From the NCBI GenBank assembly GCA_040222015.1, contig JAVJWO010000165.1, positions 1 to 64,000 of the forward strand: DNA of 64,000 nucleotides. The letters are read 5' to 3'. Made by a program: the position numbers and the translations under genes. Below, one piece after another: positions 51,652 through 58,396 of this stretch. The notes under the pieces were generated by a model that ran no database searches, had not been told where the DNA came from, and was given only the letters and a program-made list of their open reading frames with translations. The stretch is from Coleofasciculus chthonoplastes F2-STO-03. GTDB lineage: Bacteria; Cyanobacteriota; Cyanobacteriia; Cyanobacteriales; Coleofasciculaceae. Every line of letters starts with the position of its first letter. Within the stretch, counting starts at the first letter, position 1.

Positions 51652-54600
51652 TTATTCCCATTCTCGCCACTGGTTCGCCCAGTTTTGGAAAATTCCCAGA
51701 ATTTGCTCCCGTCGCTGTTCAAAATTAGCGGCAATGCTAATAAAAATGATGCCAGCGATTAAGCCAATGACCCATTTGGAAAAGGGATAGCGAAAACTTA
51801 AAACAACTAACTGGTAAAATACCGTTAGAACAAATGTTGCTGTACCAACCATTAAAAATGCCCGAATTCGCAGTCCTAATCCAGCAAATAGGACAATCAG
51901 GCTAATGATTCCCGGAATGAGTCCAGTCTCTTGATGGAAAAAGAACGCGGCTAAACAAATGATGCTACTACCCAGTAAGCGGAGATAATGACGAGTTTGT
52001 CGTTTTCGGGGATGTCTTAATTCTGGATCAATTTGGGCAATGTAGAGGCAAGATCCACCAATTAGGGCAGCATACCATAAGGGTTCAGTGATCTGTTGAT
52101 TAACCAAAACCCGCCAGATTGCCCAATCAACAAAAAATAGACTCAAATATGTCCAGCGTAAATTAGACTGGCGGTTGGCAACCCAGGTATAAAATCCGGC
52201 AACGGCTAGTAAATTGATGGAAGATAGGGTTTGATAATTGAGGCAAACCGTTAGTAAAGGAGAGATAATGGCGTAATGTTGCCAAGGTTTATCATTCCAT
52301 CCCCATCGTCGCCAAGGCAGTTGAAAAAGCGCGATCGCGAATAAACAAGCCATTACCCCTCTCCAAGGGTCAAATATACTCAACTGTGTCCATGTCAAAC
52401 GCGCATAAACACCTGTGGCGGCGACTTCGGTTAATCCGGCGTATATCCAGAGGTTAGCAGCCATGTAGAGACGTGCCATGGCGCGTCTGGGAGATGGGGG
52501 AGATGAGGGAGATAACTGGCGTTTTTGTCTTATACGCCCCTGTAATAACGCATAAATAGCCAGTATCCAACTGATGGCAAGTCCGATGGTTCTCAGATTT
52601 GGTGTTGTTCCCACAGACATTCCCGCCGTTAACACCATCAGCAAACTGGCAATTGCCCAATGAATGTGGGCGGTGATTTTAATTTCAGTGATACTGAGGT
52701 TGAGAAGGGTGGAACGATCGCGCGATTGCCAAAACCAAGCCAACACTCGATAAATAACCGCGATCGCAGCCGCTACACCTCCTAGAATAGTAAAGCCATC
52801 TGCCGGATTTCCGCCATCGGCTTGCATCATCTGGTAAATTACCAATTCATACCAAGCAATGGAAATACCTGCTAGGGAAAGATAGGTGATCCCTTTCCAG
52901 GGAAGACGGCGACGCCCTACGCCTATACCGGTTAATGCTGCACCGAGGGTGAGTAACCCGGTATAAGGGGTGAAATACGTCCAACGTAAACTAACGCCAA
53001 TTAGGGCATAAATTAAGGGTAAAATCTCCAGTGCATCCCTAGATGCGCCAGACGCGCCATGGCGCGTCTCTACAGGTTCCTCTGTATCCCCCTCTAAACG
53101 GGCAAACCACCAATCGGTGAGGAATAGTATCACAAGTGCCAGGATAATGTTGGCGGTGGCTAAGGTTAAGGATGAACCATTTCGTAACAGAATCGTATCC
53201 GCGATCGCTAATTCGATTGCCCAACTGATGCCATAGACACCAAACTGTGTAAATGATCGCCAACAGCGAAACCAAATCGCACCGCCCATTAACACTGATG
53301 CGGCTAGGTAATGCCAACTGGATGAAATGAGTTCGACGTAACTCTGGGTACTGTGCAGCGTTAGGAATCCTAATTCTGTAGAAGACAGGGCAATTGCCCA
53401 TCTATCTGAGGCTTGGGCGTACAAGGCGGCTAAATCGCCAGATTGGGGAATTAAGCTAGCCCGTAGCAGCCACAATCCGAAACTTGCGATCGCACCAACC
53501 AAATACCAATCGGCGACAGATAGGGCGGGTAATCCGGGAATTCCTTGCCACAGCCATGCAGCAAAAAAGCTGAGGGCAAAACCAATCGTAATGACGGCGG
53601 TTACCGTTTGGCGCAAATAGCGACTATTCAGGAACATTACCACTGTGGCTACCCCTAAGCCAATCAGCCGACTCTGCGGTGAGGCTAGGGTTAGCCCTTG
53701 TACTAGAAATAACGCGATCGCACTCCACGAAACTGCCTGAATGCGCCGCGATCGCTGAGTAAGACTGGCAACTCCAGTTAAGGTTAATGGGGTGAGTAAC
53801 CATAAAAGTCCCCAAGGGTTAACCCTGAGCGAAGTCGAAGGGTGCGTGGGAAAGGGAATCAAATAGGTAACACTTTCCCCAGCCAGTAACACATAACTGA
53901 TACCAGCGAGGACAAAACCAATGTGCCAACAACTTAGATACCAACTCTGTTTGGGGACAGAAAACGGAGGATTTGCTGCTACCGTTTGCCCTTCCTGCCT
54001 TCTGGAAACCTCCTGCCTCCTGCCCGGTTGGTGAGCCTGTCGAACCACTGCCTCCTGCCTTCTGAAAGGTTCCTGCCTTATGCTCAGACTCCATTCTGCC
54101 ACCATTAACGCTAACAATAAACTTGCCCAGAGGGGTTCGTTGAGAGTCGGAAACCATCCATCGATAAACGAACAGAGGGTTAATAATCCGGCGATATGGG
54201 TGAGATAAACTAGAGGAATTCGCAGCGGAGGGCGGCGATGAGTAACAATAGCCAGGGTGACAGTGGAGAGTAAAAGATTAAGCGATCGCGCCGTCGGATT
54301 CAGGCTACTGATTACCGTTAACATCACACCCAATCCTAATGTGAGTCCTTCTCCAAACCGGGCTAATTTAGGATTCGACTTCCGATAGAGCCAATCGGTC
54401 AAACCTACCCACAGAATAATGTAGGGAAATAGGACGACACCCCACCAAGCTTCCACGTTTGAACCCACCTGTTGAGAGAGGAAACTGACTACCTCATCTT
54501 GTACCGCCAATGGGATTAATCGCCATAGTAAAAACAGCGTTTGCAAGCCAATCAAAAAGATAGCAGCTAAATCCAGACGCCGCCGAGAATACTGTAAGCG

Positions 54601-55698
54601 CTGGGCGAAAAACCCAATCGCCAACCCACTAACCGCCGTGGCTTGCCAAGGAATTTCTTCTCCTACCGAAACCAACCAACCGATCAACAGTAATCCCCCG
54701 CCAATTCCATCCCAGACTTTTGTACTAAAGGAGGAAACAGACTCACGCGCGTCGGCTGAAGGCTTTCCCTGTCGCGCCAACAACCAACCACAGATTCCCA
54801 TGGCTAAACCAAATTGGACAATTGGCACATTGATCACGAAAATCGCCCGTCCCAGCAACACCGTTAGGGCATAAATCACCACTAAACTACCGGTGGGTGG
54901 ATTATTCGGCACAGATGGAGAAGCGCGAGGGGTTGAAGCGGCAGAGGGGAGAAACATCGCAGTTCCGATGACGCCTAAATAAACAGCGACTAATGGAACC
55001 TGTGACCAATTCCAACCCCAGTGTAGATAACTTAACCATAAAACTAGAGAAGCACGGGAGGTAAGCCGGAATGAGTTGGTTTGGATAGACGGATTGATAA
55101 CCGTAATTCCCGTTAAACTTAACGCCGCAATACCAACAACTATCCATTCCCAGGGATGACGCCCTAACCCAAAACCATCCATTGCCCAAAAATTCACTGG
55201 GACTAAAAGCAGGGCAATCAGTTGTAAGGTTTGAGAGGTTAATTTTAAATTAGAACGTTTTCCCGCCCACAGGCTAATGCCCCAAAAGACAATGGTATAT
55301 GCCCATAACACACCATACTGTCCCGCTGGTGGAAAATTCTGCCATTGAGTTGCGGCGAGGACACCGGAGGAGACAACAACCAGAAAGACACCCAGAAACA
55401 GCAGCCAGCGTACACTCAGTTCCTCTTGCCATGACTGCCAGATGCGGGATAGGGGCGACACAGTAGGAATAGGAACGGGTTCCTCTACCTTGGTTTCCAC
55501 CTTCCGGGATTGGGGGCGAGAGGGAAGCGGCGCAATTGCTGGTTGAGGGAGGCGACAAGATAAATAGAGTTGTCCTAATTGTTTAACTTGGGCATCACTG
55601 ATTAAACCCAAGCGCAACCAGGTTTCTAAACCTTCGAGTAACTTGGGATTGGAGGCAGAAACAGTGAGTTCAATTCTCAGAGAGCGTGGCGAGGACAT
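51652..55698 (-). CDS. Large polytopic membrane protein (DUF2157-like)
   Basis: More than 30 hydrophobic segments; WLLFLGVFLVVVSSG, LLVPVNFWAMD; several in-frame repeat insertions. Confidence 0.8.
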   Translation of the reverse strand: MSSPRSLRIELTVSASNPKLLEGLETWLRLGLISDAQVKQLGQLYLSCRLPQPAIAPLPSRPQSRKVETKVEEPVPIPTVSPLSRIWQSWQEELSVRWLLFLGVFLVVVSSGVLAATQWQNFPPAGQYGVLWAYTIVFWGISLWAGKRSNLKLTSQTLQLIALLLVPVNFWAMDGFGLGRHPWEWIVVGIAALSLTGITVINPSIQTNSFRLTSRASLVLWLSYLHWGWNWSQVPLVAVYLGVIGTAMFLPSAASTPRASPSVPNNPPTGSLVVIYALTVLLGRAIFVINVPIVQFGLAMGICGWLLARQGKPSADARESVSSFSTKVWDGIGGGLLLIGWLVSVGEEIPWQATAVSGLAIGFFAQRLQYSRRRLDLAAIFLIGLQTLFLLWRLIPLAVQDEVVSFLSQQVGSNVEAWWGVVLFPYIILWVGLTDWLYRKSNPKLARFGEGLTLGLGVMLTVISSLNPTARSLNLLLSTVTLAIVTHRRPPLRIPLVYLTHIAGLLTLCSFIDGWFPTLNEPLWASLLLALMVAEWSLSIRQEPFRRQEAVVRQAHQPGRRQEVSRRQEGQTVAANPPFSVPKQSWYLSCWHIGFVLAGISYVLLAGESVTYLIPFPTHPSTSLRVNPWGLLWLLTPLTLTGVASLTQRSRRIQAVSWSAIALFLVQGLTLASPQSRLIGLGVATVVMFLNSRYLRQTVTAVITIGFALSFFAAWLWQGIPGLPALSVADWYLVGAIASFGLWLLRASLIPQSGDLAALYAQASDRWAIALSSTELGFLTLHSTQSYVELISSSWHYLAASVLMGGAIWFRCWRSFTQFGVYGISWAIELAIADTILLRNGSSLTLATANIILALVILFLTDWWFARLEGDTEEPVETRHGASGASRDALEILPLIYALIGVSLRWTYFTPYTGLLTLGAALTGIGVGRRRLPWKGITYLSLAGISIAWYELVIYQMMQADGGNPADGFTILGGVAAAIAVIYRVLAWFWQSRDRSTLLNLSITEIKITAHIHWAIASLLMVLTAGMSVGTTPNLRTIGLAISWILAIYALLQGRIRQKRQLSPSSPPSPRRAMARLYMAANLWIYAGLTEVAATGVYARLTWTQLSIFDPWRGVMACLFAIALFQLPWRRWGWNDKPWQHYAIISPLLTVCLNYQTLSSINLLAVAGFYTWVANRQSNLRWTYLSLFFVDWAIWRVLVNQQITEPLWYAALIGGSCLYIAQIDPELRHPRKRQTRHYLRLLGSSIICLAAFFFHQETGLIPGIISLIVLFAGLGLRIRAFLMVGTATFVLTVFYQLVVLSFRYPFSKWVIGLIAGIIFISIAANFEQRREQILGIFQNWANQWREWE

Positions 55699-56020
55699 AG
55701 TTTTCTGGAGTTCGTTCGTAGTAGGCACGCTTCGTGCCAGAAGAAGCGCTGAAGCGCTTACTACAAACAGATTAATTAATCCTAGCATCAGATTTTCCAG
55801 TTGATGATTGATGACTCAGGGCAAGTTGTTCCGTTAGTGGTGGGGAGGGCGGGTTTTGTTTTTCCGTTATTTCTGAATAGCTCAATTTAGTCCCTAAACC
55901 CGCCCCTACAATTGTCCCTAAACCCGCCCCTACAATTGTCCCTAAACCTACCCCTACAGAGGGCTAAATCTACCCCTAGAATTGACGTATAAGGTATAAA
56001 TTATTACTTATGAACCGGAT

Positions 56021-56258
56021 TGCGATCGCGCCTTGCGTACCCTGACTTCTAAGAGCCTACATACTTAGTACGAGAGGAAGAGTAACGCTGTTCTATTAAC
56101 AGTGGGCGTTTGAGAACGAGGAGTGCGAAGAACCCGATAGGTTGGCTTAGAGGTAGCCATCCTTTAAAGAGTGTGTAATAACTCATCGGCGGAGTCCCTC
56201 TAGTAACTGAGAAGGCGCATAACAACGCTCTGGTAACTTGCACGCGAGGGCGATCGCA
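56021..56258 (+). ncRNA. Putative small RNA mimicking the 23S rRNA sarcin-ricin loop and GTPase-associated centre
   Basis: Closing stem 56021-56038/56242-56258; TAGTACGAGAGGA hairpin 56062-56084; H43/H44-like block 56134-56189. Confidence 0.8.
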
Positions 56259-56307
56259 CAATTACAGGATCTTGGACTATAATAGTACAAAAATACTAAT
56301 TAAAATT

Positions 56308-56769
56308 ATGCCGATTTATTTCTACAGCACCCGTGAAAAACCCTACGGTTGCTTTTCCAACTTCTCTCGCCATGGTTTTGAGTTAGATGGTTGTTGGTGG
56401 GCAACGAGTGAACATTACTTCCAAGCACAGAAATTTGTCGAGACGGATCGTCCTTGGTTCGACAAAATCCGCGAAGTAAAAACGCCTAAAGACGCTGCCA
56501 AAATGGGCAGAAGTCGGCAACACCCTCTCCGTCACGATTGGGAACAGGTCAAGAATGAAATTATGAAGCGGGGAGTGTTGCAGAAGTTTGAAACTCATGC
56601 TGATATCCGTGAGATACTTTTGGCGACAGGGGATGAGTTGATTGTCGAGAATGCCCCCAGAGATTACTACTGGGGATGCGGTAAAGATGGCAGTGGTAAA
56701 AATAAATTGGGAGAGATTTTAATGGCAGTGCGAGAGATATTGCGTCAACCTCTTACAAATGACAAATGA
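56308..56769 (+). CDS. NADAR (YbiA-like) family hydrolase
   Basis: YGCFSNF, TSEHYFQAQKF, LLATGD, DYYWG, GKNKLGEILM motifs. Confidence 0.93.
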   Translation: MPIYFYSTREKPYGCFSNFSRHGFELDGCWWATSEHYFQAQKFVETDRPWFDKIREVKTPKDAAKMGRSRQHPLRHDWEQVKNEIMKRGVLQKFETHADIREILLATGDELIVENAPRDYYWGCGKDGSGKNKLGEILMAVREILRQPLTNDK

Positions 56770-56829
56770 CAAATGACGAATGACGAATGACAATCTCCAC
56801 CGTTAGCTTTTATTGTGTCCACCCACTTA

Positions 56830-56902
56830 GGGTCTGTAGTTCTAATGGGAGAACGCCTGTTTTGCACACAGGAGGTTGCGGGTTCAACCCCCGCCAGATC
56901 CA
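56830..56902 (+). tRNA. trnA: tRNA-Ala(TGC)
   Basis: G3:U70 pair; CCTGT TTTGCAC ACAGG. Confidence 0.88.
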
Positions 56903-56906
56903 TGAT

Positions 56907-56982
56907 GGTGTCTGAAGCCAAAGCGGTCGCGGCGCTTGTTTGTGGAACAAGTCAATAGCGGGTTCAAGTCCCGTCAGACACC
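56907..56982 (+). tRNA. trnH: tRNA-His(GTG)
   Basis: G-1:C73; CTTGT TTGTGGA ACAAG. Confidence 0.85.
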
Positions 56983-56989
56983 CTTCAAT

Positions 56990-57076
56990 GGAAGATGCCG
57001 CTGAATGGACGGCAAGCGGTCTTGAAAACCGTGGTACGGCAGCGATGCCGTAGGGGTTCGATTCCTCCATCTTCCT
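56990..57076 (+). tRNA. trnS: tRNA-Ser(TGA)
   Basis: GCGGT CTTGAAA ACCGT; long variable arm TACGGCA/TGCCGTA. Confidence 0.82.
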
Positions 57077-57080
57077 TTAT

Positions 57081-57152
57081 CCACCGGAAGCCGAAAAGTG
57101 AGGCGCTGTGCTGATAATGCAGAGGTAGAAGGGGCAGTACCTTCCCGGTGGA
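57081..57152 (+). tRNA. trnI: tRNA-Ile(GAT) with non-canonical T loop
   Basis: CCACCGG/CCGGTGG; loop CTGATAA; T loop GGCAGTA. Confidence 0.75.
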
Positions 57153-57157
57153 TTCAT

Positions 57158-57228
57158 CCCTCTGCCAGTGGATTCTGGCACTGATACTACGAATATCGGA
57201 TGCGGTGGTTCAATTCCATCCAGAGGGG
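57158..57228 (+). tRNA. trnR: tRNA-Arg(ACG) with reduced D arm
   Basis: CCCTCTG/CAGAGGG; TGATA CTACGAA TATCG. Confidence 0.72.
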
Positions 57229-57231
57229 TTT

Positions 57232-57636
57232 GATCGGGGGTGAGTAGCTGTAATCAAAAAGCTGGAAACATTTACCCATTATTGCCCATGCATTGGGTAG
57301 AGACTTGTCCCGATGGAATGGGTTCGACAAGAGTAAGTAGTCGGACACAAGTTTTGGGAACTGTATAAAGTTTTGTAAGCATTACCGCAACGCTTGTGAC
57401 ATAAAAATTCGTGCTGTTTTACATTTCTTAACACAGAGCCGTTTATTTATGTCCGACTACTTATGTATACTTTTTGGTGTACCTATCCAGCCAAAAACCA
57501 CAGCTAGATAGGTGACTTTATATAGCCGCCAGTTAGGTGGTGTTAGCCTGTGGACTGGTTAAGTGCCGTCACTGCCAGGATGAAGCAGGAAGTAAGTTCC
57601 AATGATGTCCATGCTTTGGATAAGTTTGGGTAAATC
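57232..57636 (+). ncRNA. Unidentified multi-hairpin RNA between tRNAs, interrupted by a MITE
   Basis: Long-range TTTACCCA/TGGGTAAA pairing and at least five local hairpins; no ORF. Confidence 0.45.
57334..57463. mobile_element. 130-bp MITE with TA target duplication
   Basis: TIRs TAAGTAGTCGGACA / TGTCCGACTACTTA. Confidence 0.8.
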
Positions 57637-57644
57637 TTATATAA

Positions 57645-57717
57645 CGGAATGTAGCTCAATTGGCAGAGCAGGTGACTCTTAATCACTGGGTTGCAGGTTC
57701 GATTCCTGTCATTCCCA
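57645..57717 (+). tRNA. trnK: tRNA-Lys(CTT)
   Basis: GGTGA CTCTTAA TCACT; C1:C72 mismatch. Confidence 0.85.
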
Positions 57718-57785: not shown

Positions 57786-58019
57786 ATGTCTGTACAAGCC
57801 ATGAAAATACAAGATCTAAAACTAGAACTAATTCAGTGGATTTTATTATTGCAAGATGTTCAACTTTTAAATGAGATCCAGACTATCAAAGAAAATTCAG
57901 CGGAAAATATAGTCCCTACTAAGCCTCGCCAATTTGGTTGTGGCAAAGGTATTTTTAGTTATGTGGCAGATGATTTTGATGCAACACCTCCGGGTTTTGA
58001 AGACTATATGCTACCATGA
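57786..58019 (+). CDS. vapB: Antitoxin (DUF2281/VapB-like)
   Basis: PRQFG..KG...ADDFD..P..FEDY C-terminus; ATGA overlap with the PIN gene. Confidence 0.8.
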   Translation: MSVQAMKIQDLKLELIQWILLLQDVQLLNEIQTIKENSAENIVPTKPRQFGCGKGIFSYVADDFDATPPGFEDYMLP

Positions 58020-58396
58020 ACTATTTAATTGATACTCATATCTTAATTTGGTTTCTTGAAGGGAACACTAACCTTTCTAAGCAGGCACAAGACTTAATCG
58101 GTAATCCTGCTAATTCCATTTATGTCAGTCAAGCGAGTTTGTGGGAAATGACCATTAAGATTAGTATCGGCAAGTTGTCTTTGTCGATTTCATTGTCTGA
58201 GTTAGAAATTTTTCTAATAAATAATCAGTTTCAAATTTTAGACGCTAAGTTTAGTCATTACGAAATATTGCAGCATTTGCCCTTTCATCATCAAGATCCT
58301 TTTGACCGCTTGATTATCGCTCAGGCAAAAGCCGAAGATTATATGATCATCACAAATGATAATCGCTTCAAACTGTACAATGTAAAATTGGTGTAA
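58016..58396 (+). CDS. vapC: VapC PIN-domain toxin
   Basis: YLIDTHILIW, SLWE, HQDPFDRLIIAQA, ITND. Confidence 0.93.
   Translation: MNYLIDTHILIWFLEGNTNLSKQAQDLIGNPANSIYVSQASLWEMTIKISIGKLSLSISLSELEIFLINNQFQILDAKFSHYEILQHLPFHHQDPFDRLIIAQAKAEDYMIITNDNRFKLYNVKLV

Follow-up and report, generated by a model that had tools for sequence, protein, structure and literature searches.

The subject of this work is an RNA element encoded on the + strand of a 64,000-nucleotide stretch of the cyanobacterium Coleofasciculus chthonoplastes F2-STO-03 (the window), where it lies between two parts of a tRNA array and just ahead of a NADAR-domain gene (Table 1). The element brings together likenesses of two distant sites of 23S ribosomal RNA (rRNA), the sarcin-ricin loop (SRL) of helix H95 and the GTPase-associated centre (GAC) of helices H42-H44, the latter holding the L11-binding domain. 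An ordered pattern made of the SRL core, a spacer of 60-90 nucleotides (nt) and the H43/H44 junction has a single match in the window and none in 100 shuffled versions, and the SRL core reported by a first-pass annotation of the bare sequence is indeed present. The terminal strands 56021-56038 and 56241-56258, when read against each other, form the 17-base-pair (bp) closing stem that this annotation had described, with one bulged G and one G.U pair. The GCGATCGC part of this outer stem is conserved within the genus only, as judged by comparison with relatives, and the conserved core is captured by a covariance model, R1, which scores the window copy at 215.7 bits. Neither ARAGORN nor Rfam calls a tRNA at 56021-56258, the element having no tRNA fold, and no Rfam family matches it besides a fragment of the large-subunit (LSU) rRNA. 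A motif scan of 55700-56900 detected no promoter-like or terminator-like site within 56021-56258; four terminator-like sites against 1.2 expected were found in the scanned region, the nearest one downstream (56331-56348) being inside the NADAR open reading frame (ORF).

Table 1. Positions of the element, its parts and associated features in the window
Feature	Position	Strand	Remarks
Whole element, with genus-specific outer stem extension	56021..56258	+	GCGATCGC on both strands
Conserved core (family model R1)	56035..56245	+	205 positions, 51 pairs
Frame, 5' half	56035..56064	+	P1 5' strand, bulge/loop, P2 5' strand, junction motif; covariation
P1 5' strand	56035-56039	+	from the pair list
Conserved bulge/loop CCCTGAC..		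+	between P1 and P2 5' strands
P2 5' strand	56049-56056	+	AGAGC, like the base of H94
Junction motif	56058-56064	+	TACATAC
SRL hairpin, H95-like	56062..56084	+	core AGTACGAGAGGA at 56067-56078
Short hairpin P4	56086..56104	+	in H96 position; 6/6 pairs with double-sided changes
GAC arm, 5' strand	56106..56133	+	P5, internal loop, P6, H42-like GGAGTGC..GAAGAAC
P5 5' strand	56106-56111	+	
P6 5' strand	56118-56121	+	
H43/H44 block of the GAC, mimic of the L11-binding domain	56134..56189	+	Rfam LSU match, identities, covariation
GAC arm, 3' strand	56190..56218	+	pairs with 56106-56133
Frame, 3' half	56227..56245	+	P2 3' strand GCTCT(GG), conserved AACTTG, P1 3' strand CACGC
Promoter-like TTGACG.. 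and first codons of deleted PARG gene	55982..56020	+	ATG at 56010; comparison with L013
NADAR-domain gene	56272..56769	+	PF08719, 1.1e-43; ORF from TTG 56272, ATG at 56309
Downstream array part, tRNA-Ala, His, Ser, Lys	56830..57717	+	
Upstream array part, 11 tRNAs	48310..49618	+	
Macro-domain gene between array parts	49643..50248	-	
Two tandem exact TGTAGTAT words, TrcR-operator type	48193..48211	+	about 100 nt before the first tRNA

Likeness to 23S rRNA and conservation of the element

The Rfam model LSU_rRNA_bacteria (RF02541) matches 56134-56189 without gaps at model positions 1093-1148, with 52.4 bits in a scan of the whole window (gathering score 50) and 47.2 bits in a permissive scan, so that the 56-nt block singled out by the first-pass annotation is also the one recovered by the covariance model of real rRNA. 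The element is nevertheless no member of RF02541, of whose 2925 positions only 1093-1148 are matched, and its order of SRL and GAC is reversed. The alignment of the block to the E. coli 23S record is gapless, as first claimed, with 44/56 identities in place of the 43/56 given initially, and the complete cyanobacterial 23S of L040 is identical at 46/56 positions. In what follows, E. coli position numbers follow the mapping of the first-pass annotation. Differences of the element from cyanobacterial rRNA comprise a compensatory change in the base stem (1054-56 with 1104-05), the base triple 1072/1092/1099, which is U.(U-A) in the window copy and C.(C-G) in real 23S, and positions 1070 and 1083. 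Two of the changes described initially as preserving the structure, those of the base stem and of the triple, are thereby supported, while the third, G1058-C1080, turned out to be the plain state of cyanobacterial rRNA.

The likeness is not limited to this block. About 82 nt of the GAC arm, taking in distal H42, H43 and H44, can be aligned to real 23S. The SRL matches at 15/15 positions, and the likeness there includes the GAGCC before it and the beginning of H96. In the domain VI structure line of Rfam, H94 (AGAGC.../...GCUCU) encloses H95, H96 and H97; in the element an AGAGC/GCUCU stem encloses the SRL and a short hairpin at the start of H96, with the H42-H44 arm standing where H97 would be. 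The resemblance of the flanks to H42 and to H94/H96 that had been suspected thus receives support from both sources. Judged on this evidence, the element is a chimeric mini-23S of about 210 nt, like its model in sequence and secondary structure at the two sites, in the H94-H95-H96 order and in the logic of the triple. It differs from 23S in that the two sites, about 1500 nt apart there with the GAC first, are here separated by 55 nt with the SRL first, in that the GAC arm replaces H97, and in the identity of the triple.

The element belongs to a family of which 174 copies were collected (156 distinct; 98 representatives below 97% identity), with identity to the window copy down to 67%. The draft genome of the window's own strain holds one copy and no assembled 23S. 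Of 61 related genomes, 27 hold a copy that covers SRL and GAC alike. Even sampling of the phylum gave matches at E <= 1e-10 in 40 of 401 genomes, in 37 of them over both sites; they fall in several families plus a second order, whereas one family (29 genomes sampled) and 12 others (225 genomes) gave none. A pattern scan of one genome per species yielded at least 121 loci. Every taxon named among the 80 loci listed is a cyanobacterium (Nostoc, Microcoleus, Moorena, Oscillatoria, Coleofasciculus, Calothrix, Tolypothrix, Elainella, Pantanalinema and others). The first-pass annotation had made its proposal depend on homologues outside this strain, and they exist in many genera and at least two orders. 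Copies are found on complete chromosomes and on plasmids, those on Dolichospermum pAfl69 and Kovacikia pA being unannotated; PLSDB shows a near-full-length copy on no other plasmid, viral contigs give 0 matches to the element pattern, and phage records give short 23S-like matches only. One partial match (G009:C2; L039:2600-3020) was rejected as an assembly chimera, a 23S fragment followed by N and poly-G downstream of a 5S gene.

Compensatory change in this family is extensive. The consensus structure was built manually under the guidance of rRNA homology; the consensus given by RNAalifold mis-paired the SRL. In the first 27 sequences 96.1% of the cells are paired, and 21 of 52 pairs show double-sided change against 4-7 in controls with slid partners. 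When the 98 representatives were realigned to R1, 95.8% of the cells were paired and 29 of 51 pairs showed double-sided change, with 354 double-sided cells against 9-48 in slid controls and 0 of 500 shuffles reaching any of the measures; as the alignment was fitted to the authors' own structure, these figures favour it, which the slid and shuffled controls answer only in part. Covariation is present in every major helix, and the 324 G.U cells summed over the pair table fit the + strand. The covariation test that the first-pass annotation had suggested is thus strongly positive. On average, 5.07 further bp can be added to the outside of the closing stem, compared with 2.33 for mismatched partners (at most 2.83 among the controls), which makes the extended stem a family feature built of lineage-specific sequences.

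Conservation reaches the positions that hold the tertiary structure together. The AGTACGAGAGG of the SRL is invariant in 98 of 98 representatives, as are the equivalents of A1088 and G1071. In the same set, 90 representatives have U.(U-A) as the triple, 3 have C.(C-G) (L115, L125 and L030), 3 have C.(U-A) and 2 have U.(U.G), and the 1058-1080 pair is G-C in 82, A-U in 11 and U-A in 2. The H43/H44 fold with its 1072.(1092-1099) triple is accordingly present both as a gapless structural match and as a covarying contact. Since the triple and the 1058-1080 pair covary and the A1088 and G1071 equivalents never change, the mimic keeps the tertiary fold of the L11-binding domain. The spread over many genera, the covariation including the tertiary triple and the invariance of the SRL also agree with the initial proposal of a selected mimic as opposed to rRNA debris.

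A shared frame, tRNA-like siblings and a Ro60-like gene

A point absent from the first-pass annotation is that the outer part of the element is common to RNAs shaped like tRNA. R1 weakly matches (23-34 bits) seven further RNAs of 76-145 nt in the same loci as element copies. What they share with it is confined to the outer frame, which runs from the closing stem through CCCTAAC, a short helix and TACATAC...GCTT...ACTTG back to the closing stem. The tRNA model of Rfam scores 53 bits inside one of these siblings, where TACATAC is the 5' acceptor strand; apart from the tRNA body, sibling cargos include a hairpin with a 7-nt loop and one of another kind. A frame pattern excluding the element gave 155 matches in 136 metagenome and viral loci. 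Eighty-one of them (67 loci) close into a full frame; the 74 that do not, including all viral (11 matches) and human-gut contigs, were taken as chance and rejected as frames. Seventy-two distinct cargos were recognized, 36 of which are called tRNA, and 34 of these begin at the T of TACATAC. The framed tRNA calls carry many anticodons, UUA and CUA included, and some stand in tandem arrays. The framed siblings have no Y RNA or YrlA match in Rfam at E <= 10, and within the window's genome no frame was found beyond that of the element. Judging from these sequences, the outer stem and junction are a generic frame that carries different cargos.

Examples of framed tRNA-like RNAs are those at L042:153-272, L042:577-721, L069:636-900(-), L116:177-296(-) and L095:248-323(-), and four in tandem at L263. 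They have a common leader/trailer stem and the acceptor strand TACATAC/GTATG, and they end in ACAACA, not CCA. Framed loci also hold short hairpin cargos and one cargo of 133 nt.

The gene neighbourhood of the element points to a possible partner of this frame. In a set of 112 non-identical places with at least 1 kb on either side, a gene for a protein of 477 amino acids (aa) with a von Willebrand factor A (vWA) domain lies upstream on the same strand in 26. The protein is one of a large family, for which 1008 representatives were found at E <= 0.001. Of 38 relatives, 12 have a C-terminal domain whose best match is the Ro60-type vWA model of Pfam (in one case above the curated cut-off), and 0 match the Pfam TROVE model. 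A 53-sequence profile of the family (A7) was searched against the solved structures of the PDB, where its top matches are Ro60 (9nen_A, 5.7e-17) and the TROVE-domain chains 9l5y_A and 9kop_A (2e-15; profile positions 23-393), followed by Xenopus Ro60 (1yvp, 1.8e-13) and Deinococcus Rsr (2nvo, 1.5e-7). By these profile matches the 477-aa protein can be regarded as a divergent relative of Ro60/TROVE proteins to which Pfam TROVE is blind. The gene detected by A7 is present in 24 of 27 element genomes against 6 of 34 genomes without the element, figures that describe a pattern and are not a test, as related genomes are not independent and overstate the association. No canonical Pfam TROVE match occurs in the window's own genome, and a reading of no link with Ro proteins, taken from the canonical TROVE result, was overturned by the profile matches and the co-occurrence of the divergent relative. 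In one relative of the same genus three framed RNAs stand directly upstream of the Ro-like gene, two of them called tRNA-Leu UAG and tRNA-Ser UGA. An in-frame TAA interrupts the Ro-like gene in 3 of 8 other genomes of the genus.

To stand beside a Ro60-family gene and to co-occur with it, as is characteristic of Y RNAs, holds for the family and not in the window's genome, where two deletions have taken place. The operon of the genus comprises a promoter-like stretch, a PARG gene (280 aa), tRNA-Arg(UCU), the element, NADAR and tRNA-Ala/His/Ser. From it the window has lost PARG and tRNA-Arg(UCU) by a deletion between two GCGATCGC sites (55982-56031 compared with L013:483-1510), at whose junction the promoter-like stretch and ATG (56010) are fused to the outer stem of the element. 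Elsewhere in the same genome, on contig C159 at ~57290-57580, about 290 nt stand in place of ~6.4 kb found in L348 (G002:C52); the missing segment holds three framed RNAs, an insertion sequence-like repeat and the Ro60-like gene, and its flanks are contiguous. By this comparison, the Ro-like gene of the window's strain has been deleted. Because both segments are gone, the window copy is an intact orphan, able to act independently of Ro at most, if at all.

Genomic settings and RNA-library contigs

Two settings account for nearly all of the 112 places. In 64 the element lies in a same-strand array of three or more tRNAs and in 42 beside a cluster of the 477-aa vWA protein, a ~277-aa ORF and a ThiF/E1-like gene; no place has both, and 6 have neither. 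An opposite-strand tRNA near the element was found in none of 157 places. Within arrays, the neighbour up to 150 nt upstream is tRNA-Arg (UCU 30, UCG 29) or a tRNA with CUA anticodon (7), and the one up to 150 nt downstream is tRNA-Arg (29) or tRNA-Ala (23); the median gaps are 72 nt and 48.5 nt, respectively. The CUA-anticodon tRNA, labelled 'Pyl' by ARAGORN, replaces the upstream tRNA-Arg in its seven places (L017, L019, L020, L032, L034 and others) and may be a suppressor-type tRNA.

Some enzymes recur near the element. Within 1.5 kb, microbial-type PARG is encoded in 22 of the 112 places, NADAR in 15, Tpt1/KptA in 8 and Macro, on the opposite strand, in 7; 40 places have at least one of PARG, NADAR, Tpt1 or Macro, and 31 of these are among the 64 array places. 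In 19 of 157 places a same-strand NADAR gene lies no more than 200 nt downstream. Exact TGTAGTAT words, a TrcR-operator motif taken from passages of PMC10272220, cluster at the array, where those starting at 48193, 48204, 48908 and 48928 make up 4 of the 8 in the window. Allowing up to one mismatch there is no enrichment (38 found against 41.65 expected), and the clustering of exact words alone is notable. Exact words also stand inside the array (48908-48935), and a one-mismatch copy (56282-56289) overlaps a TATAAT just upstream of NADAR.

In non-array places, the ~277-aa ORF starts 33 nt downstream of the element in 29 of 46 places, with the gene of a short ThiF/E1-like protein after it (L075:1887-2714 and homologues; L042:5057-5692). 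The ~277-aa protein itself has no match in Pfam, NCBIfam, PADLOC or the PDB, and its Atlas scores are below 0.8. Other members of these clusters are a nucleotidyltransferase of the CCA-adding/poly(A)-polymerase type, DUF4291 and Tpt1. The cluster of genome G133 holds a GNAT protein, NADAR and an RNase T-type exonuclease, and that of G341 (L341:1137-2363; G341:C98) a second EF-Tu gene, 76% identical to the genome's own housekeeping tuf; each of three other genomes checked has one EF-Tu gene.

Sequences of the element were also recovered from RNA libraries, as contigs which carry no information on ends, strand or level and which may derive from DNA. Library X1 gave a 194-nt contig over 56027-56218 with 4 differences and a word depth of 2135, about 60-fold deeper than the 999-nt NADAR contig (depth 35) of the same library; X4 gave a 1368-nt contig through the element at depth 280, laid out like the operon of the relatives; and X8 and X9 gave one contig each of a relative's element. 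The remaining X8/X9 signal over 56139-56185 was discarded as true 23S of other organisms.

Candidate roles and remaining features of the locus

It is tentatively proposed, with a confidence just short of even, that the element is an adaptor similar to Y RNAs whose cargo mimics the factor-binding site of the ribosome. Y RNAs are described as tethering Ro60 to an effector (PMC4201824; bioRxiv 10.1101/312249), and the presence of the frame in the siblings, together with the co-occurrence and adjacency of the Ro-like gene, suggests a ribonucleoprotein of this type. In such a particle the frame, a long stem made by the two ends of the RNA and marked by a conserved bulge and junction, would dock the divergent Ro60/TROVE-type protein, while the variable cargo mimics an RNA of the translation apparatus, a tRNA body in the siblings and a mini-23S here. 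The cargo, which keeps the sequence and tertiary fold recognized on the ribosome by uL11/uL10 and the translational GTPases, might then bind translation factors or ribosomal proteins, so that by analogy with Y RNAs the element would connect the Ro-like particle with the proteins or toxins for which the factor-binding site is the docking place. The setting would be a response of RNA damage and repair, with tRNA arrays under TrcR-type control, PARG, NADAR, Tpt1 and the CCA-adding-type enzyme.

The family and the bacterial Y RNAs have several features in common. In Yrn1 and YrlA, as described in passages of PMC4201824, the RNA ends likewise form a long stem with a conserved bulged region; the second module of YrlA mimics tRNA, as do framed siblings, while that of the element also mimics an RNA of translation; and Y RNAs are encoded beside a Ro60-family gene in RNA-repair neighbourhoods, as the family is here. 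The differences lie in the cargo, a two-site 23S mimic instead of the tRNA-like module of YrlA, and in the candidate partner, a divergent Ro-like protein missed by Pfam TROVE instead of the Ro60/Rsr of Y RNAs. The D and T arms typical of tRNA-like Y RNA modules occur in the framed siblings and not in the element, whose cargo is rRNA-like. Such a two-site 23S cargo has no known precedent.

A number of observations weigh against the adaptor proposal. An alignment with hhalign of four Ro-like against two cyanobacterial Rsr sequences gave a probability of 1.5%, and canonical TROVE is not positively associated with the element (4 of 27 element genomes against 13 of 34 without it). The Ro-like gene is missing from 3 of 27 element genomes, that of the window included, and none lies within 1.5 kb in any of the 64 array places. 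The Ro-binding motif GNCGAAN0-1G given in passages of PMC4201824 is absent from the frame, whose 5' strand in the 98 representatives reads GCGTG-(A/C)CCTAAC... with no GNCGAA. The element, of ~205-213 nt, is longer than the Y RNAs described so far (80-130 nt), its siblings measuring 76-145 nt; and in contrast to YrlA, it is from the acceptor end of the tRNA-like cargo that the frame stem emerges. To these must be added the non-independence of the genomes compared and the nature of the RNA-library contigs. If the link with Ro proteins fails, the element would stand as a kind of its own.

The strongest competitor, unlikely on balance, is a free decoy: the RNA, cut from the array transcript, would soak up agents that attack the factor-binding site, such as Tre23-type ADP-ribosylating toxins, toxins that cut or depurinate the SRL, or thiopeptide-type antibiotics, while flanking PARG and NADAR would strip ADP-ribose from RNA and spare tRNAs would replace damaged ones. 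The invariant SRL and the preserved GAC fold speak for a decoy, as do the slot that the element occupies in same-strand tRNA arrays (64 of 112 places), its position between PARG and NADAR in the operon of the genus, the presence of PARG, NADAR, Macro or Tpt1 within 1.5 kb in 31 of the 64 array places and its persistence in intact form in the window's strain after loss of the Ro-like gene. Published passages add that trn arrays are induced by translation-targeting antibiotics (PMC8421152; PMC10272220), that Tre23 ADP-ribosylates nt 1095-1098 in H44 of the GAC (PMC8661411) and that ADP-ribosylation of RNA is reversed by NADAR when on the guanosine base and by PARG-type macrodomains when on the 2'-OH (PMC11833690). 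However, a substrate decoy is a poor competitor against a catalytic toxin, and according to a section heading of PMC8661411 Tre23 acts on actively translating ribosomes, not on free rRNA. The decoy also leaves the shared frame and the co-occurrence with the Ro-like gene unexplained, as it does the 42 places of the Ro-like/ThiF cluster, only 4 of which have an ADP-ribose enzyme nearby. Moreover, no toxin gene is a conserved neighbour; VapC (58016-58396), like the 1378-aa ORF described below, is not conserved beside the element outside the genus.

Features of decoy and adaptor might be integrated in one particle, a version that is considered rather improbable. The cargo would then be a working miniature of the GTPase-associated centre and serve as bait in an RNA-based 'integrated decoy' that keeps watch over translation. 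Away from the ribosome, it would gather uL11/uL10 and offer a docking site to translational GTPases or to toxins aimed at the site; the Ro-like particle would use it together with the framed tRNA mimics; the Ro-like ring would sense when the bait is occupied or has been cleaved, depurinated, ADP-ribosylated or drug-bound; and from there a signal would reach the ThiF/E1-like pair or the repair enzymes linked to it in the genome.

A role as regulator or sensor is less probable again. Ribosomal protein mRNA leaders that mimic rRNA sites are an established kind, and the element could in the same way titrate free uL11/uL10 or a GTPase, or be damaged or bound by a drug, and so control NADAR, the ~277-aa gene with ThiF, or the tRNAs that follow. 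A same-strand ORF lies 26-33 nt downstream in many places, and the NADAR (19/157) and ~277-aa (29/46 non-array places) neighbourhoods given above would suit such control. On the other hand, the downstream feature varies (tRNA-Ala or tRNA-Arg, NADAR, the ~277-aa ORF, Tpt1), the motif scan found no terminator or anti-terminator within 56021-56258, and the short X1 contig of the element is ~60-fold deeper than that of NADAR. The element is not in the 5' untranslated region of ribosomal protein genes; those of uL11 and uL10 (contig C175) and uL6 (C210) are encoded elsewhere in the window's own genome, each as a single copy. Finally, a decaying, rearranged and functionless 23S fragment or misassembly, for which one might invoke the draft genome without assembled 23S and the chimeric 23S fragment of one relative, can be dismissed, given the SRL 5' of the GAC in all 174 copies, the reverse of 23S, the compensatory changes with a three-way triple, and the copies on complete chromosomes and plasmids.

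Other known systems are approached only in part. In the long tRNA arrays of cyanobacteria (trn operon or L-arrays), which are repressed by TrcR (PMC8421152; PMC10272220), the element occupies one slot on the strand of the tRNAs, with TrcR-type words upstream, but it is no tRNA; term searches in these two papers, supplements excluded, turned up nothing on an RNA resembling rRNA or on a frame that is conserved. Ribosomal protein mRNA leaders and synthetic oligoribonucleotides also reproduce an rRNA site outside the ribosome, and oligonucleotides of the SRL and of the thiostrepton loop are reported to bind EF-G in vitro. The element differs from both in being a natural stand-alone RNA that combines the two sites and is not upstream of ribosomal protein genes. 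Like the first-pass annotation, which knew of no such RNA, searches of full-text literature (supplements and subscription journals excluded) found no description of an RNA combining SRL and GAC or of the frame, and a 2026 preprint on tRNA mimics likewise has none.

The element would be the first natural RNA known to join the SRL and the L11-binding GTPase centre in one small molecule, and thereby a compact, evolution-tested model of the factor-binding site. If the adaptor proposal is true, the idea of the Y RNA, a Ro-docking stem with a mimic module, would be extended from tRNA to rRNA mimicry, a large Ro60-like family missed by the standard TROVE model would be uncovered, and cyanobacterial tRNA arrays, RNA de-ADP-ribosylases and Ro-type surveillance would be tied into a candidate response to translation damage. 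The role of the bacterial Ro/Y RNA particle is a long-standing question, and the cargo names likely ligands, which makes that question directly testable.

Some further features of the window deserve mention. A 24-nt tandem repeat (x4 at 55890-55983) and ACAAATG heptamer repeats (56755-56782) flank the element; a role as cassette ends was rejected, since they are simple tandem repeats. Both are widely dispersed and draw very high depth and spurious 'joints' in metatranscriptome contigs. Directly after the array, a 77-aa ORF overlaps the PIN-domain (VapC-like) gene (57786-58396). The array itself is split by the 1378-aa ORF (51652-55788, -; weak DUF2157 match) and by a 209-aa ORF (50627-51256, +), the latter being conserved near arrays in other genera.

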